Shown: positions 3,995 to 55,195, numbered from the stretch's first letter. The stretch: DNA of 64,000 bases from Alphaproteobacteria bacterium (GCA_015062525.1 SUUM01000004.1:24547-88546), one strand, 5' to 3'. Notes: generated by a model not told the origin, from the letters alone. Made by a program: numbers and translations.

Positions 3995-4232
3995 ACAATT
4001 TAATTAACCAACGTTAACCATTATAATTCACCCAGATTAACTAAATCAAGAAAATAAAAACACCCAGAAAAACCGTCGCGATTGCGACGGAATAACTATT
4101 ATTTTGTTTTAAATGGCGCCACAAATTTGCGACGTTCTTGTCCGGAATTTTATCCAACTTCACAGCTAATCCTTTTTAAGCCTAAGGACCGGCACATCAA
4201 AACAACAAACAATATCAACGAAAGAATCCAAG

Positions 4233-4262
4233 AAAAAATCCCGACATCGTCGGGATTAAAAT
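4233..4262 (-). terminator. rho-independent terminator (AATCCCGACGATGTCGGGATTTTTT on minus strand)
   Basis: Perfect GC-rich hairpin followed by a T-tract immediately after the small ORF. Confidence 0.6.
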
Positions 4263-4424
4263 TTACATTTCGTTGCCACCATTGTCCCCCAGGAACACAT
4301 TTCGCATACGAAATTCCTTCATAATATCAACCTTGGCGCCCGCATTCTTAAAACCACGCACTTTCGCGCCCCCCTGTTCCAGAGATTGCATCGCAATATT
4401 AAAATTTTTTACCATATCAGTCAT
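4263..4424 (-). CDS. small hypothetical protein (53 aa, MTDMVKNFNIAMQSLEQGGAKVRGFKNAGAKVDIMKEFRMRNVFLGDNGGNEM)
   Basis: Absent from the ORF track because it is under 60 aa; GAGG RBS 8 nt upstream of ATG and followed by an intrinsic terminator. Confidence 0.4.
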   Translation of the reverse strand: MTDMVKNFNIAMQSLEQGGAKVRGFKNAGAKVDIMKEFRMRNVFLGDNGGNEM

Positions 4425-4511: not shown

Positions 4512-6092
4512 TTACTCTTCACAATCAAATTCAGCACAGCTCCCCATCGAATATTCCTCTATCGCAAACTCCATCGGCACTGGCTTAGGCTCTTCTGTAT
4601 AGTGAACTTCTTTGACGACACGCACACGACGATTTGCCGCATTCGGAGTATTGTCTGGTGTTGGCACCGCCAAATCTTCCTCGCCGGCGGAAACAGCAAC
4701 AATTTGGCTGGCCGGAATTCCGTACTTAATCAACATCTTCTGCACGGCTTCGGCACGACGTCCCCCCAACGCATAGTTATAATTGGATGTACCCGCCGTA
4801 TCGGTATGCCCAACCACAGAAACCCTGATATTTTTATTTTCCTGGGTCACATCAACCAACTGTTTAATCAATTCCTGATATTCTGGTTTAATAGTCGCCT
4901 TGTTAAAATCAAACCGTATTTCGAACACTTCCTCCATAACATGCTGGGTTGGTTCAAGTGGAATCTGCTGAACCTTAATCATTGTTTTTTCGCCCTGATT
5001 CACTTGAATCTGGTCCAGACGCGCATTAATCGCAGCCAATTCCGCACGCATCGCCATCATCATATTGATAAATTCTTCACGCGACACCAGTTCATCCCCA
5101 ATCATTGGTGGTTCTTTTTCTTTTACCACAACCGCCACAGATGGCGCATTTTGACAATTCGCATCACCCTGTGCACATGTATGATTATGCGATTGCGACT
5201 GGCATTCCATATCCCCCGCTGGGCAATCAACCGCCATCAGACGATTAGCACTGTTGTGCATACTGTTGTCATTTGCACTGTTTGAAATTGTTTTATCCCC
5301 ACCATAGATATTCTGATTAAACACCATTGGCTGAACTGGCACAGGATTAATCAGATGTTCTGGCACATTAACGTTATTCACAACAATCACACCTTCGCGT
5401 GCCGCGCCACCACCACGCATAGTGTTCATACCACGCGTTTCCGGATAATAAGCCCCAGCGGTACGTTGCGTTGTTTCAACAACAGTTTCCCGCCCTACAA
5501 CACTCGCGGTTGATTTATTCACAACTTTACCACCATTACAATCACGCAACGCCACCAGGGCTTTATTAAACCTGTCGCGACATTGATTTGCAGTTGCAAC
5601 CTGACCACTTGCCGCCGCAGACAACCAGCAATCAAACTTAGCCTGCGCCTCAGCCGCCAGTTCCGGATTAGTGTACGACGCATCATTTTTCAATTGATCC
5701 ATCAAATCATTATACGCAGCATACAACTCAAACGATTCCTGTTCATTTTCCACCGGCCAATTTTCAAGAGATTCTGGGAATGGCACCTCGCCACTAAATG
5801 CAGCAACGGCCTTGTTAGCAAACAACTCGCCCATATCGGTATAACCACTGGTCCGCGCATTATAAATCGCATAAGAACGATAATTCATTGCCAATTGATT
5901 CAAGAAAGAATCCTGATGCGGTGCGGAATAAACATCCAAAAACTCAACATAATCAACAGTCGGCGTCGCACCAACATCCGTATATTCCATCACATCGCCA
6001 CCCGAACGTGCACACGCACCAACCGCCACAATGCCCACCAGCGCCAGCATACGTGATATAACCCATGTAGCAACATTTGATTTATATTTCAT
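4512..6092 (-). CDS. OmpA-family (peptidoglycan-binding) lipoprotein
   Basis: Signal peptide with lipobox-like VGAC; C-terminal OmpA/MotB domain (VGHTDTAGTSNYNYALGGRRAEAV...RRVRV). Confidence 0.75.
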   Translation of the reverse strand: MKYKSNVATWVISRMLALVGIVAVGACARSGGDVMEYTDVGATPTVDYVEFLDVYSAPHQDSFLNQLAMNYRSYAIYNARTSGYTDMGELFANKAVAAFSGEVPFPESLENWPVENEQESFELYAAYNDLMDQLKNDASYTNPELAAEAQAKFDCWLSAAASGQVATANQCRDRFNKALVALRDCNGGKVVNKSTASVVGRETVVETTQRTAGAYYPETRGMNTMRGGGAAREGVIVVNNVNVPEHLINPVPVQPMVFNQNIYGGDKTISNSANDNSMHNSANRLMAVDCPAGDMECQSQSHNHTCAQGDANCQNAPSVAVVVKEKEPPMIGDELVSREEFINMMMAMRAELAAINARLDQIQVNQGEKTMIKVQQIPLEPTQHVMEEVFEIRFDFNKATIKPEYQELIKQLVDVTQENKNIRVSVVGHTDTAGTSNYNYALGGRRAEAVQKMLIKYGIPASQIVAVSAGEEDLAVPTPDNTPNAANRRVRVVKEVHYTEEPKPVPMEFAIEEYSMGSCAEFDCEE

Positions 6093-6669: not shown

Positions 6670-6711
6670 AATGCAACGATTTTATATCACCCCCACAAAA
6701 AAATCAAATAC

Positions 6712-6905
6712 TTCGCTAAATAAAAGTTTAGTGGTTAGTGTAAGTGCTAGTGGTTAGTGGATGTGTGCGGCGAATGCCGCACATTATAGTGCCATCACTT
6801 ACCACTCACACTAACCACTTATCACTAAGATAAACTTTTATTTATCTAAGTGATGATATGTTAATTGCGCTTTGCTCTTTGCGCTTTGCTCTTTGCTCAT
6901 TGAAA
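6712..6905. repeat. palindromic repeat element (ttagtggttagtg family) plus gcgctttgctctttgc direct repeats
   Basis: ~130-bp imperfect palindrome centred on hairpin TGTGCGGCGAATGCCGCACA; copies recur at 13312, 35866, 38185 and 38440. Confidence 0.8.
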
Positions 6906-6930
6906 AAATCCCCCACCAGGGGGATTTTTA

Positions 6931-7983
6931 TCAGAACCTGTACACCCCAGAAACATTGATATTATGCAGTTGAATCACATCATTATATTTATACCGGTAA
7001 CCAATACCAAACTGTACCCCACGTGCCGACAGCAATTCTACACCACCACTAATATTAGCCCACAATGGATCAATATCAATATCATACCGTATAAACTCAT
7101 CCGCTACAGCAAATTTATATTCTGCATGATTTGGCGCACCGAACACATCATATTCCACCCCAATTGATGCATATGGTCGAACTTGGAACCTTGCCGATGG
7201 ATAAATACGTTTCTGTGCAATCAATGAATACCCCGGCGTTAAAACAAAATACCCATCTGATTGCATACGCAGATACTCATGGCCCGCCACCTTTTCTTTG
7301 ACATTAGACCCGAAATTATAGCCAACACGTACATACAAATTACCCACAACATATTGATTCAGAACATCATGCATCAGTCCCCATTCACTCATCAAACTGA
7401 ACGCAGTACCATCACCATCAATTCTGTCAACCAAGTTCTGGGTACGGTCAACGTCAAAGACATGCAAATCCAAGAACGCATTACCATATAAACGTGTCTT
7501 TTCACCCAGTATTTTCATCAAATAACCGCCCAGGCCAATATCAGTATCTGCGACATCAATACTGACATTTCCCACCTGGGTTGTACCAGCATAACTTAAA
7601 TCCACGGAATCACCCGCTTTGGACGTTGTGTGCGACACACGCCCCGACACCCCCAATTGCAAGGTATTTGATTCCTGCCAGTCAAAACCGCCCGCCACAC
7701 TGACACGATGACCGTCTGTATGTTTGCCATCATTAATATTTTGATAGAAAATACCATAATCGACATCCAACCATGCTTTATTCAAATTGCGATGACGATT
7801 CCAGATAAATTCATCAAACATACGGTCTTCGAATGAACGAAAGGACATATGTTCATTTAGCGCGACCGCCCCCGCAATCTGTTCAACAGATACCAGATTT
7901 TGAGCTGTTTCTGGTTCTACTACATCCGCCCCTGCCCCCATTGGCAGCAAGCAACAAACCAAAGATAACAACTTTTTCATCAT
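6931..7983 (-). CDS. outer-membrane beta-barrel protein (family unassigned)
   Basis: Signal peptide MMKKLLSLVCCLLPMGAGA, alternating beta-strand pattern, C-terminal YRF typical of OMPs. Confidence 0.55.
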   Translation of the reverse strand: MMKKLLSLVCCLLPMGAGADVVEPETAQNLVSVEQIAGAVALNEHMSFRSFEDRMFDEFIWNRHRNLNKAWLDVDYGIFYQNINDGKHTDGHRVSVAGGFDWQESNTLQLGVSGRVSHTTSKAGDSVDLSYAGTTQVGNVSIDVADTDIGLGGYLMKILGEKTRLYGNAFLDLHVFDVDRTQNLVDRIDGDGTAFSLMSEWGLMHDVLNQYVVGNLYVRVGYNFGSNVKEKVAGHEYLRMQSDGYFVLTPGYSLIAQKRIYPSARFQVRPYASIGVEYDVFGAPNHAEYKFAVADEFIRYDIDIDPLWANISGGVELLSARGVQFGIGYRYKYNDVIQLHNINVSGVYRF

Positions 7984-8080
7984 TTTTTTATTTCCTTCCT
8001 ATAACAATTGTGATTATATTATGGCACATTTCATTTTCCTATGGCAATATGAAATTGTATATACATCTAAAGGAAACTAA

Positions 8081-12878: not shown

Positions 12879-12892
12879 CAAATTAAACATCT

Positions 12893-13010
12893 CGCCATCC
12901 GGCGGGATTTTTTAGTGGCTAGTGTAAGTGCATCCGTCTGTGCACAGCACAGCCGAGATAAAAAGAGCAAAGAGCAATTAATGTATCTTTACCGCGATGA
13001 ATAAAAGTTT
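12893..13010. repeat. repeat element arm (inverted partner of 13437..13530)
   Basis: agtgtaagtgcatccgtctgtgcacagcacagccgagataaaaagagcaaagagcaattaatgtatctttac is the reverse complement of 13441..13510. Confidence 0.75.
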
Positions 13011-13128
13011 AACAGAGATATTAATTTTTAGAAATTAAGCACCATTACCTGCCCCCGTCGGGCCCCGAAAAATTCAGATGAATTTTTTGGGTGACTTTGT
13101 GGGGCGGGACAGTTTTACTTGACCCGCC

Positions 13129-13314
13129 ATGCGGGGCTTTAGTAAAACTTGGGTGGGGGCAAATATGACAAAACATTCAACACAAGTTATTCGCGCAAAA
13201 CAATTACGCAAAAATATGTCAGACGCAGAAAGCAAATTCTGGTATCGAATTAATCGCAATCAACTAGGTGTAAAATTTCGCCGCAATAACAAAGCCACTT
13301 ACTTCGATAAATAA
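13129..13314 (+). pseudogene. truncated DUF559-like (endonuclease-domain) gene fragment
   Basis: 61 aa matching the N-terminal DUF559 pattern (LRKNMSDAESKFWYRINRNQLGVKFRR) but lacking the C-terminal half; ORF ends at the repeat element at 13312. Confidence 0.4.
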
Positions 13315-13530
13315 AAGTTTAGTGGTTAGTGCAAGTGGTTAGTGGTTAGTGGATGTGTGCGGCGAATGCCGCACATTATAGTGCCATCACTTACCACTTA
13401 CACTAACCACTTATCACTAAGATAAACTTTTATTTAGCGCAGTAAAGATACATTAATTGCTCTTTTTATCTCGGCTGTGCTGTGCACAGACGGATGCACT
13501 TACACTAATCACTAAAAAATCCCCGCTTGG
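13312..13530. repeat. palindromic repeat element (ttagtggttagtg family) plus inverted partner arm
   Basis: Near-identical to 6714..6846; the second half is the reverse complement of 12893..12960; ends in an A-tract/hairpin/T-tract terminator-like module also seen at 23843..23907. Confidence 0.8.
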
Positions 13531-13671
13531 TTGCACCCGCGCAAACGAATGTTTGTGTGGGTGGAATCCAGGGTGTTTTTTTACAAAAAAAAATGTGTGC
13601 TGACACATGTACAAAAACAACAATTTTTTCATACAAAAAACACAAGTAATATCAATATATTAATCCGTGTA

Positions 13672-13699
13672 AAAACTATAAAACAAACCAACGTTTGTT
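13672..13699. promoter_or_regulatory. hix/gix-like 28-bp palindromic site, left copy: TATAAAACAAACC-AA-CGTTTGTTTTATA
   Basis: 13+2+13 architecture with an AA central dinucleotide; A-rich...CC | GG...T-rich half-sites reminiscent of Hin hix sites; the partner site at 13764 has the inverted core. Confidence 0.45.
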
Positions 13700-13763
13700 T
13701 TATACCATTTTGTCAAACAAAAAAATAGCAGATTTCCGCCATTTTTGCAAGCGCAAATCAACT
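13700..13763 (-). promoter_or_regulatory. putative invertible promoter segment: TTGCAA-N17-TGC-TATTTT on the minus strand
   Basis: -35 TTGCAA, 17-bp spacer and extended -10 TGcTATTTT read leftward, away from the Gly-rich operon, in the present orientation. Confidence 0.35.
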
Positions 13764-13791
13764 ATAAAACAAACGTTGGTTTGTTTTATAG
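13764..13791. promoter_or_regulatory. hix/gix-like 28-bp palindromic site, right copy, inverted core: TATAAAACAAACG-TT-GGTTTGTTTTATA
   Basis: Exact reverse complement of the left copy, so the two sites form inverted repeats. Confidence 0.45.
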
Positions 13792-13808
13792 TCTAAATGG
13801 GGGGATTT

Positions 13809-14816
13809 ATGCCGGCAATACATGTTAATAATGTTGATATTCAGGTGTATGAACAGCAGTATACATCACCCACCCTGCACGTGCAAAATACCGACGGAAA
13901 AATATACCATGCAATTGTTATACCCCAGGGGGGCGAATTTCTTGATGCCTCGGAAAAACTGGTATATTCCGCGGATTCAATCAACGAATGCGAACCGGTC
14001 ACATTGGATGCGGGAATGTATCGCGTGGAATTGCGTGGTGGCGCGGGTGGAAAACAATCGCGGTGTAATGTCGGTTTGGGTACAATAAACCCGGTTGCCA
14101 ATACGGTATCCCAGGTTTTTAAATTACCCACACAAACAACCGTATATGCATTTCGTGGTGGCGATGGTAATGACAGTCCCACGGTGACGGTTCATCAGAT
14201 TCCGGGTGGTGGCGCATCGGGTGTGGACAGCATGCTGGTGGTGGGTGACCATGCAATTGTTGGTATCGGCGCACCATCGTCACAGTGTTTTAATTTAGCT
14301 ATTACATCATACCCATACCCCCATGGGGGCACAACAACACGCTTTCAGTGCCAATCCACACCATCTGGAACATATGCCATAGAAAACATTGAAATAGGAC
14401 AAGCTGTAGGTGGTACTTATTTTGGCTGTGGTGGGGGTGGCGGGGGTGCCCCAAATGGTATTGGTGGTACATCGGTTTCATACACAAACGTTAAAATAAC
14501 CGCCGGCACCAATGCGACATCTGATGGGGGTGGGAATGGTGGTGATGCGGAAAATTTAACGGGGGATTCACAAACAAAAAATCTGGGGATTGGTGGCATT
14601 GGTGGCAAAAACGTATATTGGCAATGTGCCGGTCACACGGCGGTATCGTATGGTGGGGGCGGCGGCGGCGCCACATGCATGTTGTACAACCCAAATACGT
14701 GCGCCAGCACAACAAATGCATGGTGTTATTCCGATTGCGCCGATGGTGGCGACGGTGCATCGGGCAGTACCGGCAAATCAGACACCAGTTACGTTAAAAT
14801 TTATAAAATAGGATAA
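13809..14816 (+). CDS. Gly-rich protein, paralog 1 (fibre-like, unknown function)
   Basis: GGGGGG RBS then ATG at 13809; Gly-rich blocks (GGGGGGAPNGIGG, GGGNGGD); ~35% identical to the next gene; no signal peptide. Confidence 0.6.
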   Translation: MPAIHVNNVDIQVYEQQYTSPTLHVQNTDGKIYHAIVIPQGGEFLDASEKLVYSADSINECEPVTLDAGMYRVELRGGAGGKQSRCNVGLGTINPVANTVSQVFKLPTQTTVYAFRGGDGNDSPTVTVHQIPGGGASGVDSMLVVGDHAIVGIGAPSSQCFNLAITSYPYPHGGTTTRFQCQSTPSGTYAIENIEIGQAVGGTYFGCGGGGGGAPNGIGGTSVSYTNVKITAGTNATSDGGGNGGDAENLTGDSQTKNLGIGGIGGKNVYWQCAGHTAVSYGGGGGGATCMLYNPNTCASTTNAWCYSDCADGGDGASGSTGKSDTSYVKIYKIG

Positions 14817-14821
14817 TCATA

Positions 14822-15793
14822 ATGTTATTACCGTTGGCATTATTATCGGCATTATATTTTAAAACATCGGATGGTAATATTTATCATACCATTGATAAAA
14901 TACCGGATGGCATGTGCATACTAAACAATAACGGCGCGGAATTGGTGTACGAAGCAAGCAATTTTAACACCTGTAACGAAATTGTATTACAACCCGGATG
15001 TTATCGTGCGGAACTACGTGGCGGAATTGGCTTACAAAATGAATATTGTTTATCCATTGCCGAACAGGATTTTACCCCCACCATATCCGCAATATTCAGT
15101 ATAAACGAACCAACCACGGTATATGTATTCCGTGGTGGCGATGGTAACCCAGGTGGGGTAAATGTTATAAATAACAGAACTGGTGCATTCGGTGGCGGTG
15201 CATCGGGCGTGGACAGCATATTGGTTGTTGGCGACCGTGTATGGCGTGCATCGGGTGGCGCGGGTAAAACGTGTGTAGCCACAAGATATCATCTGAATGG
15301 CGCTACCAGCTCTAGCTCAGTTTCTGTTGGAAATGGTATTGGTGGGGGCGCAACGTCAAAAATCAGCACTCAATCTCGTTTATATTTACAACAAATATCA
15401 GCACTACGCTTCGAGGTATACGGCATTGGCGGTGGTGGTGGCGCGTCACCAAATGGCGCCGGCGGTACAGATTGGCAATTCCACAGTGCTTTTATCAATG
15501 CGGATGAATATGTAAATGCCGGCACCAATGGCACAGATGAACGTGGTGGTAACGGTGGTGATATTTATTCGTGTAATAACCCATCCTGTACATCCATGGT
15601 ATCCGCCACGGGGGGCACGGGTGGCGCAACCGTTACATATGAATGTGGTGGCCAAACCGCAAAATCATATGGTGGTGGTGGCGGTGGCGGGGCATACAAT
15701 GGAAGCAACTCAACCGCCGCCAACGGCGGTAATGGCGGTTCCGGTTCAACCGGCACCAGCGACACATCATTTGTACGAATTTATCGCATATAA
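14822..15793 (+). CDS. Gly-rich protein, paralog 2
   Basis: AGGA RBS; shares VY.FRGGDGN, GGGASGVDS.LVVGD and TG.SDTS.V.IY.I motifs with paralog 1; tandem arrangement. Confidence 0.6.
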   Translation: MLLPLALLSALYFKTSDGNIYHTIDKIPDGMCILNNNGAELVYEASNFNTCNEIVLQPGCYRAELRGGIGLQNEYCLSIAEQDFTPTISAIFSINEPTTVYVFRGGDGNPGGVNVINNRTGAFGGGASGVDSILVVGDRVWRASGGAGKTCVATRYHLNGATSSSSVSVGNGIGGGATSKISTQSRLYLQQISALRFEVYGIGGGGGASPNGAGGTDWQFHSAFINADEYVNAGTNGTDERGGNGGDIYSCNNPSCTSMVSATGGTGGATVTYECGGQTAKSYGGGGGGGAYNGSNSTAANGGNGGSGSTGTSDTSFVRIYRI

Positions 15794-15809: not shown

Positions 15810-16412
15810 TTATTCCCACCCCTGACGTTTTACAAACTGTGATACAGTCGCGGGATAAACCCCCATTATCTTGGATATTTGATATTTACTGACCCCCATA
15901 TCCAATAAATCTTTCACCAGTTTTGTATTTCTGGCCAGGCCCAATTTCCTTGAACGTGTCGCCATCGGTCGCCCCAGTCTTTTGCCCGTGGCACGAATAC
16001 TGTCCAACGACGCCTTGGTTCGTTGCGATATCAGGTTGCGTTCAATCTCGGCCGATAAACCAAATGCAAATGCCATTACCTTGGACTGAATATCATTTCC
16101 CAAACGATAACTTTCCTTGATGGTCCAAACCTGACAATTTTTATTCATACAAAATTCCAAAATTTTCATAATCTCTAGTACCGAACGCCCCAGACGCGAT
16201 ATCTCGGCGGCAATTAAAATATCACCATCATGCAACCCATTTAACAATAACCATAAACGTCTTTTCGATAATGGTTCACGCGATGATATTTTTTCTTGTA
16301 TCCACCGTTCGACCTTTATATGATTTTGCCTTGAAAATTTATTTATCTCGAAATATTGATGTTCGCACGTTTGTTTATTCGATGACACACGAATATAGCC
16401 GATAATCGCCAT
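15810..16412 (-). CDS. serine recombinase, Hin/Gin/Cin-type DNA invertase (resolvase family)
   Basis: 200 aa; N-terminal catalytic motif IGYIRVSS with the Ser nucleophile; C-terminal HTH (GVSKYQISKIMGVYPATVSQFVKRQG); size typical of small invertases. Confidence 0.8.
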   Translation of the reverse strand: MAIIGYIRVSSNKQTCEHQYFEINKFSRQNHIKVERWIQEKISSREPLSKRRLWLLLNGLHDGDILIAAEISRLGRSVLEIMKILEFCMNKNCQVWTIKESYRLGNDIQSKVMAFAFGLSAEIERNLISQRTKASLDSIRATGKRLGRPMATRSRKLGLARNTKLVKDLLDMGVSKYQISKIMGVYPATVSQFVKRQGWE

Positions 16413-16547: not shown

Positions 16548-16883
16548 ATGAGAAAAATTTCATATATCGTTTTTGCGTGTGTATTGTATATCCCATTTGC
16601 AAATGCAAAAATTGCAAGTCAAGAGTATGTTACAACTCATACTAGTAATCACACAAACCCGCATCAGGTCACCAAGGCTCAAGTTGGCCTTGGGAATGTA
16701 CCAAACGTTGACACAACAAATGCGGCTAATATTACTACGGGCACACTTGGGTATGACCGCCTGCCGGTTGGAACGACAGCAAACACCGTTGCCGCCGGAA
16801 ACGATGCCAGGTTTTACGCAATACCAACCGCACAACCAACCGTCAACGCCCCAGAAGGCATGGCGTTGGTATGGTTCAATTAA
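16548..16883 (+). CDS. small secreted protein with a phage tail-fibre-like motif (KAQVGLGNVPNVDT)
   Basis: Strong RBS GGAAGGAAGAG; signal-peptide-like N-terminus; motif resembles the conserved VGLGNVDNTSD block of coliphage tail fibres (from memory, not searched). Confidence 0.45.
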   Translation: MRKISYIVFACVLYIPFANAKIASQEYVTTHTSNHTNPHQVTKAQVGLGNVPNVDTTNAANITTGTLGYDRLPVGTTANTVAAGNDARFYAIPTAQPTVNAPEGMALVWFN

Positions 16884-23116: not shown

Positions 23117-23839
23117 ATGAAAAAACAAATTACCCTGATTGGCATATTGGCGATATTGGCGGGCTGCGCCGGTTCAGACAATGAAATTGTGGCGGATCAA
23201 CCCCTGCCCGAAATATACGCAAACGCCTATGCAGAATTTAATGATGAAAATTATGAAGAAGCCGCCACGGAATTCCTGCGTGCTGAAACCCAGCACCCGG
23301 CCAGTTCCTGGGCCCCAGATGCATTGATTATGGCGGCATATTCACATTATATGGATGGCGACTTTGCCGGCGCGTTATTGGCGACCGACCGATTTATGCG
23401 ATTCCATCCCGGCCATCGTGATGTGCCATATGTAATGTACCTGCGCGGCATGTGTTATTATCGCCAGGTCAGCGATGTCCGCCGCGAACCCGGCATGTCC
23501 GCGTACGCATTGACGCAGTTTCAGACATTGGTCCAACGTTTCCCCAACAGCGAATATGCAAAAAATGCCGAAAACAAAATCAATATATTAAAGAACTATA
23601 TAGCGGGCAAGGTTATGTATTCCGCCCGCAACGACATGCGCGTTGAAAATTGGCCCAGCGCGATAAACCAATTACAAACCATTGTTCGCGACGCCCAGGA
23701 AACCGCCATGACGCCCGAGGCCCTGTACCGCCTGACCGAGGCTTATACCGCAATCGGCCTGCCCGAACAGGCGCACGGATACGCCGAAATGTTAAAATTA
23801 AACTTTCCGGACAACACCTGGACAAAAAAGTTAAAATAA
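23117..23839 (+). CDS. bamD: outer membrane protein assembly factor BamD-like TPR lipoprotein
   Basis: Lipobox LAGCAG; TPR-like helices; ~240 aa, the size and pattern of BamD/YfiO. Confidence 0.65.
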   Translation: MKKQITLIGILAILAGCAGSDNEIVADQPLPEIYANAYAEFNDENYEEAATEFLRAETQHPASSWAPDALIMAAYSHYMDGDFAGALLATDRFMRFHPGHRDVPYVMYLRGMCYYRQVSDVRREPGMSAYALTQFQTLVQRFPNSEYAKNAENKINILKNYIAGKVMYSARNDMRVENWPSAINQLQTIVRDAQETAMTPEALYRLTEAYTAIGLPEQAHGYAEMLKLNFPDNTWTKKLK

Positions 23840-23842
23840 AAA

Positions 23843-23907
23843 AAATCCCCCATCCGGGCCCCGCGCAAACAAATGCTTGCGTGGGTGGACATCCGGGGGT
23901 TTTTCAA
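23843..23907. terminator. terminator-like repeat module (A-tract, GC hairpin, T-tract), homolog of 13507..13572
   Basis: aaaaaatcccccatccgggccccgcgcaaacaaatgcttgcgtgggtggacatccgggggttttt; shared cgcgcaaac..aatg.ttg.gtgggtgga core. Confidence 0.6.
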
Positions 23908-27322: not shown

Positions 27323-27364
27323 CCAAATTTTCAAGCAAGCGCAGCGCGCGTTGAAAATTTGAGT

Positions 27365-27714
27365 GTCTCGGCGGTGCTTTGCACCGACGGACAGCAAGAA
27401 CCAACGGTTATTCAATGTCTCGGCAGTACCTTGCACCGACGGACAGCAAGAACCAACGGTTATTCAATGTCTCGGCAGTACCTTGCACCGACGGACAGCA
27501 AGAACCAACGGTTATTCAACGTCTCGGCGGTGCTTTGCACCGACGGACAGCAAGAACCAACGGTTATTCAGTGTCTCGGCGGTGCTTTGCACCGACGGAC
27601 AGCAAGAACCAACGGTTATTCAATGTCTCGGCGGTGCTTTGCACCGACGGACAGCAAGAACCAACGGTTATTCAATGTCTCGGCGGTGCCTTGCACAGAC
27701 GGGGTCTTGTCTCC
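27365..27714. repeat. 52-bp tandem repeat, 6 full + 1 divergent copy, each with hairpin CGGTGC-TTT-GCACCG
   Basis: Exact 52-bp periodicity (units at 27365, 27417, 27469, 27521, 27573, 27625, 27677); units 2-3 carry three transitions in the hairpin arm; a single homologous copy lies at 12583. Confidence 0.9.
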
Positions 27715-35833: not shown

Positions 35834-35859
35834 TCCCATTAATAATTCGTTTGCTTAGA

Positions 35860-36060
35860 TAAATAAAAGTTTAGTGGTTAGTGTAAGTGCTAGTGGTTAG
35901 TGGATGTGTGCGGCGAATGCCGCACATTATAGTGCCATCACTTACCACTTGCACTAACCACTAAACTTTTATTTAGCGAAGTAATCATGGATTCCGCCAC
36001 TTACCACTAACCACTTACACTAACCACTTGCACTAACCACTAAAAAAATCCCCCAAACGG
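35860..36060. repeat. palindromic repeat element copy plus an extra half-copy (ttagtggttagtg family)
   Basis: Near-identical to 6714..6846; followed by a bidirectional terminator at 36041..36074. Confidence 0.8.
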
Positions 36061-36076
36061 GGGATTTTTATTAACA

Positions 36077-37984: not shown

Positions 37985-38535
37985 AATTACTTTGATAAAT
38001 AAAAGTTTATCTTACAAAACACGTTAAGTGTTTTGTCATTCCGTGGCTTGACCACGGAACCCAGGTTATGCGCGCAAAGCGCGCACAAATAATAAGGATT
38101 CTATTACCTGGGTCCCGGTGTCAAGCACCGGGATGACAGAATTTTTTTACAAAAATTCTGTTTTTATTTACCCCACTAAACTTTTATTTAGCGAAGTAAT
38201 CATGGATTCCGCCACTTACCACTAACCACTTACACTAACCACTAAAAATCCCCCATTTACCCCGCTAAATAAAAGTTTAGTGAAATATTTAATTGTTAAA
38301 AAAATTAAGAACAGAGACAAGTTCTCCTCCGTGGGAGGAGTACGGCGTAGCCGGGAGGTGGGTTAACCCACCCCGTCCGCTTCGCGTCCACCCCTCCCCG
38401 GGGGCGCATGTGCGCCGCCGACGGAGGGGAACTTTTACCCCGCTAAACTTTTATTTATCGCAGTAATCATGGATTCCGCCACTTACCACTAACCACTTAC
38501 ACTAACCACTAAAAAAATCCCCATTACCGGGGATT
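37985..38535. repeat. composite intergenic repeat region: MITE-like element with ~33-bp TIRs (38035..38165), repeat-element half copies, GC-rich structured insert (38285..38450)
   Basis: TIR tgtcattccgtggcttgaccacggaacccaggt versus acctgggtcccggtgtcaagcaccgggatgaca; GC-rich hairpins ctcctccgtgggaggag and gggaggtgggttaacccacccc. Confidence 0.7.
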
Positions 38536-38541
38536 TTTTTA

Positions 38542-49004: not shown

Positions 49005-49080
49005 GCCGGTTTAGCTCAGCTGGTAGAGCGGCTGATTTGTAATCAGTAGGTCGTTGGTTCAAGTCCGACAACCGGCACCA
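49005..49080 (+). tRNA. tRNA-Thr (anticodon TGT)
   Basis: 76 nt; acceptor GCCGGTT/AACCGGC; loop TTTGTAA; T-loop TTCAAGT; encoded CCA. Confidence 0.8.
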
Positions 49081-49290
49081 GAATTAAAACGTACCATTTG
49101 GTGCGTTTTTTCGTTGGGTTTCCCTGCCTTTTTGATTTTTGTGTTGGGTGGCGAACTTGCGCGGGGCTGGCTATTTTTATTTTATTCGGGGCATGTAATT
49201 CCAACCCATTTCCGCCCCATGCCCCCAAACCACCAAAAACTGTGATGCAACAATAAAAAAAGGCGCCAGTCTGACGCCTTGCTGTATCAA
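49081..49290. repeat. modular ~300-bp repeat, copy R1 (tRNA-Thr-adjacent, terminator-exit variant)
   Basis: Shares the gcgttttttcgtt...attttattcggggc...ctgtgatgcaacaataaaaa core with R2, R3 and R5; ends in a hairpin terminator for the minus-strand gene. Confidence 0.8.
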
Positions 49291-49683: not shown

Positions 49684-49985
49684 GCTATGTGAGGCGATGT
49701 GTGATGCAGGCGGACCAAATCAACTGGCCGACCACTATTGGAAATCTTGGACTTTGGACTCGCCTTGGCATCCCGACAAAGGCTACCCGTTTAAAAACGC
49801 ACCAAACGGTGCGTTTTTTGTTTAGATTTCCCTGCCCTGTTGGATTTTGTGTCGGGTGGCGAACTTGCGTGGGGCGGGCTATTTTTATTTTATTCGGGGC
49901 GTGCAATTCCAACCCAATCCCGCCCCATGCGCTAAAAATACAAAAAACTGTGATGCAAAGTGTGATGCATTGTGGTATAGTTAAC
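49684..49985. repeat. modular repeat copy R2 (promoter-exit variant, TGgTATAGT extended -10 at 49973..49981)
   Basis: Contains the gctatgtgaggcgatgtgtgatgcaggc head, a tRNA-Thr 3'-end-like stretch (CGCCTTGGCATCCCGACAAAGGCTACC), terminator AAAAACGCACCAAACGGTGCGTTTTTT, and TGTGATGCA direct repeats before the -10. Confidence 0.85.
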
Positions 49986-51201: not shown

Positions 51202-51492
51202 GGCGATGTGTGATGCAGGCTGAGTAATCAACTGTCTGAAACCATTGGAAATCTTGGACTTTGGACTCGCCTTGGTATCCCGACAAAGGCTACCCGTTTA
51301 GAAACGCACCAAATGGTGCGTTTTTTCGTTGGTGGTTCCCTGCTCTTTTGATTTTTGGATTGGGCGCAACACCCATGCGGGGCGGGAGGGTTTTATTTTA
51401 TTCGGGGCGCACAAATCCAACCCAAATCCGCCCCACGACCCCAAAACACCAAAAACTGTGATGCAAAGTGTGATGCAGTGTGGTATAATTTG
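51197..51492. repeat. modular repeat copy R3 (promoter-exit variant, TGgTATAAT at 51481..51489)
   Basis: Same architecture as R2; perfect extended -10 consensus 25 bp upstream of the next ATG. Confidence 0.85.
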
Positions 51493-54888: not shown

Positions 54889-55195
54889 GCTATGTGATGC
54901 GATGTGTGATGCAGGCGGACCAAATCAACTGTCTGAAAATATTGGAAATCTGGGACTTTGGACTTGCCTTGGCATTCCGACAAAGGCTACCCGTTTAAAA
55001 ACGCACCAAACGGTGCGTTTTTTGTTTGGTTTTCCCTGCCCTGTTGAGTTTTTATGCTTGGCGCGCCACCTGCGCAGGGCGGATGGGTTTTATTTTATTC
55101 GGGGCGTGCAAACGCAACCAAATCCTACCCCACGTCCCCAAAACACCAAAAACTGTGATGCAACAATAAAAATCCGCCCATTTGGGCGGGTTTAT
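54889..55195. repeat. modular repeat copy R5 (terminator-exit variant)
   Basis: Full-length copy ending ctgtgatgcaacaataaaaa + hairpin ccgcccatttgggcgg. Confidence 0.85.

Follow-up and report, generated by a model that had tools for sequence, protein, structure and literature searches.

The intergenic regions of a 64,000-nucleotide stretch of alphaproteobacterial DNA, here called the window, carry an undescribed family of repeats whose conserved unit is a site of about 30 bp, termed S, and not the 130-bp palindrome by which the first-pass annotation had defined the family; that palindrome is one dimeric form of S. We read the family as lineage-specific mosaic repeats, organised like the REP sequences and BIMEs of E. 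coli without being a member of them, with S as a recombination joint, and give this reading a probability of roughly 55%. Elements are gained and lost between relatives, sit at the edges of terminators, hold cargo in both orientations and assort modules freely across the S core, and we infer that DNA strands are exchanged at S.

The repeats stand far above chance. With up to two mismatches, the arm word TTAGTGGTTAGTG has 27 matches in the window against 1.25 expected, and the frame TAAATAAAAGTTTA has 13 against 1.43, ten of them exact and one with a single mismatch; the central hairpin TGTGCGGCGAATGCCGCACA occurs exactly three times, against 0 expected. All ten exact frames form facing (+,-) pairs, with cores at 6717/6831, 13308/13423, 35860/35962, 37996/38177 and 38266/38444. 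Only the first three pairs enclose a GTGGTTA arm, the TGTGCGGCGAATGCCGCACA hairpin and a TAACCAC arm, giving full palindromes of about 116-129 bp from core to core (6717-6844, 13308-13436 and 35860-35975; family D4, with 93% and 71% identity to the first copy). These type-1 palindromes fold strongly as DNA and RNA (z = -8.6 to -10.3; cargo of region A as DNA, -36.9 kcal/mol, z = -8.6). The other two pairs enclose unrelated hairpin cargo: that of D1 is 167 bp long with five hairpins (z = -12.8), and that of D2 is 164 bp and GC-rich.

Palindromes of about 130 bp had been placed at 6714, 13312, 35866, 38185 and 38440. The first three are as described, but at 38185 and 38440 lie tail modules that are not centred on TGTGCGGCGAATGCCGCACA, 95 nt each (repeat family D5) and made up of frame, linker ATCATGGATTCC, a CCACTAA-like heptamer array and a terminator. 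Thus the repeat family is real, but its unit was mis-delimited, one type of cargo having been taken for the whole element. Inverted arms were correctly recognised on either side of a DUF559 gene fragment; they lie at 12904-12970 and 13457-13523, are 97% complementary (I1), and are two copies of another tail type, each with a terminal frame. All S sites in the window are intergenic and beside terminators, and between 37996 and 38457 their orientation alternates +,-,+,-. The features are as follows, with window coordinates.

6709-6730, plus strand: S at the far end of region A, TACTTCGC and core (6717-6730), 48 bp upstream of the smpB start codon.
6731-6830, no strand: type-1 cargo of region A, with GTGGTTA arm (6731-6760), TGTGCGGCGAATGCCGCACA (6764-6783) and TAACCAC arm (about 6793-6830).
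6831-6852, minus strand: terminator-proximal S of region A, core (6831-6844) and left arm.
6853-6902, minus strand: tail A, a linker and a GCTCTTT/GCGCTTT short-period array running from S to the terminator.
6903-6929, no strand: two-way intrinsic terminator AAAAAATCCCCCACCAGGGGGATTTTT of an autotransporter gene (6931-7983, minus strand).
12889-12913, plus strand: terminator after tRNA-Val; the array of region B begins directly after its T-tract.
12914-13011, plus strand: left copy of tail B, ending in an S with the one-mismatch core TGAATAAAAGTTTA (12998-13011); inverted partner of 13423-13516.
13012-13164, plus strand: cargo, comprising a 'attaatttttagaaattaag' end and a GC-rich hairpin module upstream of DUF559; from 13043 onward 97% identical to L062, another species.
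13129-13314, plus strand: truncated DUF559 ORF, 61 aa as called, with C-terminus and stop codon from the element.
13299-13444, no strand: type-1 S dimer of region B, cores 13308-13321 (plus) and 13423-13436 (minus), hairpin 13356-13375.
13445-13582, plus strand: right copy of tail B and a long A-/T-tract terminator-like hairpin (13514-13582).
35834-36041, no strand: composite C, from polA stop codon to terminator A-tract, absent in the relative L054; S core 35860-35873, hairpin 35907-35926, S' core 35962-35975, linker, CCACTAA array 35998-36041.
36042-36069, no strand: two-way terminator common to polA (plus) and a YadA-anchor gene (minus).
37987-38199, no strand: element D1, with S core 37996-38009, 167-bp cargo built of two GTCATYCCG...CGGRATGAC hairpins, and S' core 38177-38190.
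38191-38261, plus strand: tail C copy 1, with linker ATCATGGATTCC, CCACTAA array, and terminator left half and loop.
38266-38457, no strand: element D2, with S core 38266-38279, 164-bp GC-rich cargo, and S' core 38444-38457.
38458-38540, plus strand: tail C copy 2 and the tsf terminator (38511-38540); L054 has the terminator without any tail.

The consensus of S is TACTKCGM-TAAATAAAAGTTTA-(KYGARGTA). The left arm, TACTKCGM, extends weakly to about AYNCAWGAW; the 14-nt core TAAATAAAAGTTTA is asymmetric and unchanging; and the right arm, KYGARGTA, is the inverse of the left, weaker and optional. The core was aligned over 51 sites from the window and 26 loci of two collection scans. The non-redundant total, which takes in the window, 26-27 scan loci, L062 and sites at locus ends, is 55, and in this set the core is exact at 51 sites and has one mismatch at the other four. 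A profile search of about 350 kb returned essentially no decayed copies, the sole exception being a two-mismatch partner in L040. The common left-arm variants TACTTCGC and TACTGCGA recur as the right arms GCGAAGTA and TCGCAGTA, and within single sites left and right variants are unmatched and do not covary; the arms thus behave like half-sites and not like a base-paired hairpin. In most sites the right arm is absent or non-complementary to the left, and a conserved hairpin at S is accordingly not supported by the aligned sequences. REPs are imperfect palindromes of 20-40 bp that can form a hairpin; in S, a perfect 12+6+12 palindrome is found at a few sites, including a solo S (L034:1143) that directly follows a terminator. 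S stands alone, as at about half of the loci, or in head-to-head dimers.

Where does S occur? The window has a GC content of about 44% and a strongly negative GC skew on the plus strand, and its genes are 73-81% identical at the DNA level to those of MAGs named "Alphaproteobacteria bacterium" or Candidatus Enterousia sp. Enterousia belongs to the uncultured order Rs-D84; these bacteria inhabit the gut, and their genomes measure about 0.75-1.0 Mb at a coding density of about 90% (PMC12306168). A strict search pattern, the 22-mer TACTKCGMTAAATAAAAGTTTA, matched 18 loci in the one-genome-per-species GTDB, exclusively in gut Alphaproteobacteria MAGs bearing one of these two names, and eight metagenome contigs in a scan that left out the window's own contig, so that the copy count is not genome-wide. 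Viral contigs held no match to the strict pattern, and a looser one gave 17 unpaired singletons there as a chance control; the plasmid collection yielded no relevant match, and a literature search with S and element sequence strings nothing relevant.

Among relatives the family is patchy. The 20-kb tsf regions of two of them (EF-Ts 97% and 93% identical) contain no S, and the smpB regions of two further ones (SmpB 94-95% identical) contain one single-mismatch 14-mer and otherwise none. In the window's own species more copies adjoin dnaK and an outer-membrane protein gene. The D2 cargo is joined there to the dnaK stop codon and also to the outer-membrane protein gene, and each copy of it has its own SNPs; therefore at least three copies lie outside or beside the window. 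With copies in other genomes and more in the same species, the family is neither few nor window-confined, in keeping with the original proposal. Many S matches fall at contig ends, and contigs of the window's species stop inside elements, from which it follows that S repeats break assemblies and are under-counted.

On the left-arm side of S, a terminator 3' half with its T-tract lies within 100 nt at 30 of the 55 sites. On the right-arm side the figure is 3 of 55, and at random positions 3.9%. The spacer from T-tract to S measures 0-75 nt and is filled by short-period (6-7 nt) arrays in the flavours AGTGGTT, GAGATAT/GAGACAT and GCAAAGA. Composites begin directly after the terminator T-tract or between stop codon and terminator. 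Three of the six window terminators of the A-tract/GC-hairpin/T-tract kind carry a composite, as do the tRNA-Val terminator and the long hairpin terminator at 13514-13582.

Clean empty sites are provided by L054, whose EF-Ts is 97% identical and in which the tsf and polA terminators are present and the element absent. Its tsf end reads '...gaagtaa aaaaatcccccgaacgggggattttt gataca'; in the window the same kind of terminator is followed directly by 'agtggttagtgtaagtgg...', a linker and S. After polA, L054 passes from 'caaataa' straight into 'aaatcccccgcacgggggattt', where the window has a 208-bp composite (35834-36041) between stop codon and A-tract; viewed from the convergent gene, this composite again lies directly after a T-tract. 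The converse is seen in L026, with a 260-bp composite at the place of a bare terminator in the window (23838-23904). For the far junction of region A the relatives gave no orthologous empty site, as their smpB neighbourhoods differ.

The intrinsic terminators of the lineage are strikingly uniform and two-way, of the form AAAAAATCCCSS-N4-6-SSGGGATTTTTT; they stand at 6903, 36042, 38511 and 42998 in the window and also in L054 and L058, relatives without S included. Another repeated module is a recurrent long hairpin (...CCCGCGCAAAC-N-GTTTGYGYGGG...) at 13514-13582 and 23838-23904 in the window, at about 520-620 in L036 and at about 830-890 in L039; it lies between A-tract/CCCCC and GGGGG/T-tract, as if inserted in terminator loops.

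Orthologous loci whose flanks are colinear carry the cargo in opposite orientations, with the cores as the exact limits of the inversion. Between L025 and L027 the cargo is 94% identical when inverted versus 54% when colinear, with flanks at 78%; between D1 of the window and L033, an orthologous locus, the figures are 80% and 55%. The hairpin centre of the type-1 cargo likewise occurs in both orientations relative to S. Inverted cargo could also mean that elements inserted independently on the two sides of a terminator, as the L025/L027 flanks hint, or that inverted repeats recombined in the ordinary way. One cargo hairpin (about 126-140 in L025) differs between L025 and L027 by a double compensatory change, CTGGGG...CCCCAG versus CCGTGG...CCACGG; since the stem changes are compensatory, this hairpin is maintained at the DNA or RNA level.

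Clustering of the 36-37 nt beyond each side of S, with arms removed, gave eight left-hand and nine right-hand recurrent module classes, and these combine freely. The tail-C class (seven sites) joins five right-hand classes, the type-1 class (nine sites) joins eight left-hand classes, and L062 has three S sites in direct orientation with tandem units of S plus module. Elements are also closer across species than the genomes that hold them: the window and MAG KG228-117 share a 252-bp segment, comprising the GC-rich module and the DUF559 N-terminus, at 97% identity, versus 73-80% for flanking genes.

Strains show breaks at S as well. In contigs that are 98.6-99.9% identical, synteny ends at S, at 6730 in L039 and at 38458 in L047/L064 and L065, and the contigs with the junctions of D2 cargo to dnaK and the outer-membrane protein gene are 99.9% identical to the window on the other side. 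SNPs of other copies appear just inside these junctions, so the switch may lie in repeated cargo and may be a path choice of the assembler; we count these junctions, as weak evidence, solely towards the presence of multiple copies. Strains that are 97% identical (L050/L051) also lose synteny in the MarR-OmpA intergenic region (about 4063-4386), which has no S, so rearrangements in this lineage are not confined to S.

One gene is cut short at an element. The DUF559 ORF (13129-13314, 61 aa) covers Pfam profile positions 4-39 of 109, and the homologues found are fragments only. Among these, P0122, at the contig end of L062, continues as a normal DUF559 (...KFRRQQPICPYIVDFVCH...), this 97%-identical copy reading on past about 13293. 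The window ORF instead turns into 'NNKATYFDK' and a stop codon, encoded by sequence leading into S, and homology stops at about 13290. Because the homologue reads on where the window enters this sequence, the truncation surmised in the first-pass annotation is supported. In L030, a GIY-YIG nuclease ORF (5075-5266; PF01541, E = 2.5e-11) is centred in D1-type hairpin cargo, and the contig ends inside the gene. Neither DUF559 nor GIY-YIG qualifies as a recurrent cargo or driver: tblastn found no further copies in any sampled locus.

The window contains other repeats besides S. A candidate invertase system, unrelated to S, has two perfect 30-nt palindromes (TATAAAACAAAC-CAAC/GTTG-GTTTGTTTTATA; 13675-13704 and 13763-13792), in inverted orientation with 58 nt between them; two paralogous glycine-rich genes follow shortly downstream. 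A third palindromic site, which is partial (16367-16385), is located where a 200-aa resolvase/invertase (PF00239 plus HTH) begins, and the small protein adjoining the resolvase has, as judged by eye, a tail-fibre-like 'KAQVGLGNVPNVD' motif; the genes of this region are 13797-14816, 14822-15793, 15810-16412 (minus strand, the resolvase) and 16549-16883. In L058, a resolvase with 50% identity lies 2 kb from a comparable pair of palindromes (7951-8066), which is upstream of a gene present or absent between strains. Elsewhere, a 52-nt tandem repeat (27364-27702; 6.5 copies, 95% identity) follows tRNA-Leu(aag) just upstream of a 998-aa gene and differs by 104 nt, or two units, in the 99.9%-identical strain L047. 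Separate direct repeats of 186-241 nt, 61-82% identical (49065-49250, 49773-49958, 51226-51466 and 54923-55163), start directly after tRNA-Thr and are interleaved with genes in a lower-GC stretch; they may represent an island or duplicated leaders of genes. The segment 37716-37809 (minus strand), which precedes the YadA-anchor gene, aligns to the full Rfam model sRNA-Xcc1 at 36.2 bits versus a threshold of 53 (E about 1e-4 to 5e-4).

A search for a cognate transposase, for example a RAYT, had been proposed, and none was seen in the sampled loci. Over about 0.4 Mb sampled, the neighbourhoods of S contain neither a RAYT nor a DDE transposase nor a tyrosine recombinase. PF01797 (RAYT) is missing from the precomputed Pfam matches in the sampled loci, but these cover about 85 kb of this genome and RAYTs are usually single-copy, so this absence says little. 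No S-ended full-length element encoding a transposase exists in the window, the known flanks or the fetched loci. The 4.3 kb bounded by the L034 sites hold housekeeping genes only.

Facing S pairs do provide terminal inverted repeats of the MITE kind, 22-32 bp long, at five places in the window and at 13 other loci. Across these 18 pairs, with boundary offsets of 0-30 and lengths of 2-9, the only candidate for a target duplication was TA inside the inverted arms; the TA flanking CTTCG...CGAAG is uninformative because of this position. As a description of the family, a classical MITE with two inverted ends and a target duplication fails: no duplication was found, many copies have a single S, and repeated modules lie on both sides of S.

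Several known recombination sites and signals were compared with S and set aside. The small serine recombinase, the one recombinase that the window contains, has palindromic sites of its own, as does its 50%-identical relative in L058; where a serine invertase of the hix/gix kind would adjoin its sites, this resolvase (PF00239 plus HTH) stands beside the different palindromes at 13675, 13763 and 16367. The XerCD dif/pdif sites, of 11-6-11 layout, have an inner ATAA...TTATG that is absent from S, which reads CTAAA-TAAAAG-TTTAG; the comparison used alphaproteobacterial dif sequences, in which dif is ATAA-N6-TTATG (PMC2731167). Against integron attC (RYYYAAC...GTTRRRY), the element, judged by eye, reads GTTTAGT at its left and ACTAAAC at its right; either heptamer matches at 6 of 7 positions, their order is reversed, and no integrase is nearby. 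Inspection by eye showed no conserved -35/-10 geometry of a sigma-70 promoter at S. Rfam at gathering thresholds found tRNAs only. Below threshold, D1 cargo (38018-38155) matched RF02625 WsnRNA46 at 38.0 and 33.8 bits versus a gathering score of 65.3. This cargo aligns to the full model on both strands and shares the GTCATCC...GGATGAC hairpins of WsnRNA46 (Wolbachia) and CGTC-type REP dimers. It is not a member at that score, however, and the likeness concerns one cargo type and not S or the 130-bp palindrome. By sequence, D1 cargo thus resembles the GTCAT...ATGAC/CGTC-type hairpin repeats of other Alphaproteobacteria.

The elements had also been likened to Correia, RPE and REP-type MITEs. Correia/NEMIS elements of Neisseria and Rickettsia palindromic elements are small non-coding repeats with inverted ends and strong folds that alter neighbouring genes. 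S elements are likewise small, non-coding and strongly folding with inverted ends, and can affect adjacent genes, but they have no sequence similarity to these repeats, no target duplication, many single-ended copies and flanks that are themselves repeated modules; RPEs insert in-frame in genes, whereas S elements have no in-frame gene insertions. Nor does the S consensus carry the tag of GTAG- or CGTC-tagged REPs, and the enterobacterial GTAG-type REPs (Y/Z) of BIMEs are unrelated to it in sequence. Hence the elements are indeed dispersed, intergenic, palindromic and non-coding, of the REP/BIME/MITE kind, but differences in sequence, tag and habits of insertion leave membership in the Correia, RPE or GTAG/CGTC-tagged REP families unsupported. 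The R64 shufflon, Acinetobacter pdif modules and integron cassettes all have short conserved sites separating small modules that are inverted or exchanged. S sites resemble them in their alternating or direct orientation, their inverted or exchanged modules and an asymmetric conservation of core plus one arm; they differ in that the modules are non-coding hairpins of 90-170 bp, no recombinase is linked and S is unlike dif/pdif.

The closest likeness in organisation is to REP sequences. Published REP dimers are in opposite orientation, have structured spacers or spacers with complementary ends, and lie downstream of genes and between convergent ORFs, and REP superfamilies bear a GTAG or CGTC tag, unpaired at one end (PMC3733652). 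S sites are extragenic and lie by terminators, with dimer spacers of 88-167 bp, and the free combination of their module classes matches the mosaic build of BIMEs. Like E. coli BIMEs, REP dimers and REPINs, S elements are short extragenic units, palindromic in part, in opposite-orientation pairs with mosaic accessory motifs, and both kinds of family are species- or lineage-specific. Unlike them, S is AT-rich and untagged, has an invariant asymmetric 14-nt core and often lacks its second arm; its spacers are longer than the usual 20-100 bp of REP/REPIN dimers, its heptamer arrays abut T-tracts, and no RAYT was seen. It is because this organisation matches published REP dimers and BIMEs (PMC3733652) that we favour the REP/BIME-like reading. 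Under it, the exchange at S would be the work of a trans-acting enzyme that the sampled DNA lacks, or else of host recombination using the 22-30 bp of identity. Taking place again and again, such exchange would spread, invert and reshuffle modules; it would lengthen 3' untranslated regions and create synteny breakpoints, and would have truncated a DUF559 gene. Selfish repeats are not usually so entirely free of decayed cores, which could point to a host function.

Three other explanations address the same observations. S might be the crossover of a dedicated tyrosine or serine recombinase, with 12-14-bp half-sites around an asymmetric TAAAAG/AA centre, inversion between facing sites, and non-coding cassettes swapped or inserted as in shufflons, integrons or pdif modules. 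The invariant asymmetric core with its half-site variants on either side (TACTTCGC/GCGAAGTA and TACTGCGA/TCGCAGTA), the alternating orientation at 37996-38457, the precise inversion of cargo between cores, the free assortment of modules on both sides, the three direct-orientation sites flanking tandem modules in L062 and the absence of decayed cores would all follow. Given evolutionary time, however, RecA-type recombination could produce these patterns as well, and no recombinase gene is linked to S, the window resolvase being tied to different palindromes. S misfits XerCD dif, its right arm is often missing, and 88-167 bp is a short segment by the standard of known inversion systems; on balance we hold such a system to be rather unlikely. 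Ordinary MITEs, with each S-cargo-S' unit a deletion derivative of a DDE transposon (for example IS630-like, with a TA target) that has terminal inverted repeats of about 25-30 bp, is mobilised in trans and is tolerated only beside terminators in a 90%-coding genome, strike us as distinctly unlikely. They would account for inverted ends of 22-32 bp around variable interiors (116-210 bp), for presence or absence among relatives, for contigs that often break at elements and for the TA flanks of CTTCG...CGAAG in 10 of 18 pairs. But that TA lies inside the inverted arms with no other duplication, only one S is present at roughly half of the loci, direct-orientation sites exist, the sequences flanking S on the outside are themselves repeated modules that all join at one nucleotide, and the sampled loci hold no transposase.

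A host-selected cis element would make S, array and terminator one functional unit, such as a roadblock or site of protein binding behind terminators, a stabiliser of the 3' UTR, or a small RNA that ends at the terminator, with spread incidental. A core kept perfectly while adjacent cargo diverged by 6-20%, the fixed polarity relative to terminators, the compensatory stem changes between L025 and L027, and persistence in genomes below 1 Mb that are about 90% coding speak for selection of this sort. Yet the elements are absent at the same genes from four close relatives, no conserved promoter stands at a constant distance, the two arms of the type-1 palindrome show no covariation, no Rfam family scores above threshold, and the modules are shuffled and sometimes truncate genes. 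Taken together, these points leave a host-selected element quite improbable.

One consequence of the recombinase proposal is worth stating, tentative as it is. At the 3' edge of intrinsic terminators, a putative recombinase may insert, swap and flip cassettes of non-coding hairpins, an 'intergenic shufflon/integron', although we hold this to be rather unlikely. If true, it would remodel 3' UTRs and terminator surroundings in genomes below 1 Mb, and if S is a recombinase site, the family would be a new kind of non-coding cassette system. One species keeps mosaic clusters of 200-700 bp at several terminators within 64 kb despite a small, dense genome. As assembly and synteny breakpoints, these clusters bear directly on the quality of MAGs from an abundant gut lineage. 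Since its core is invariant, its junctions lie exactly at T-tracts and close relatives lack it, the S family offers a clean case for the open REP/BIME question of how such repeats move and why they persist.
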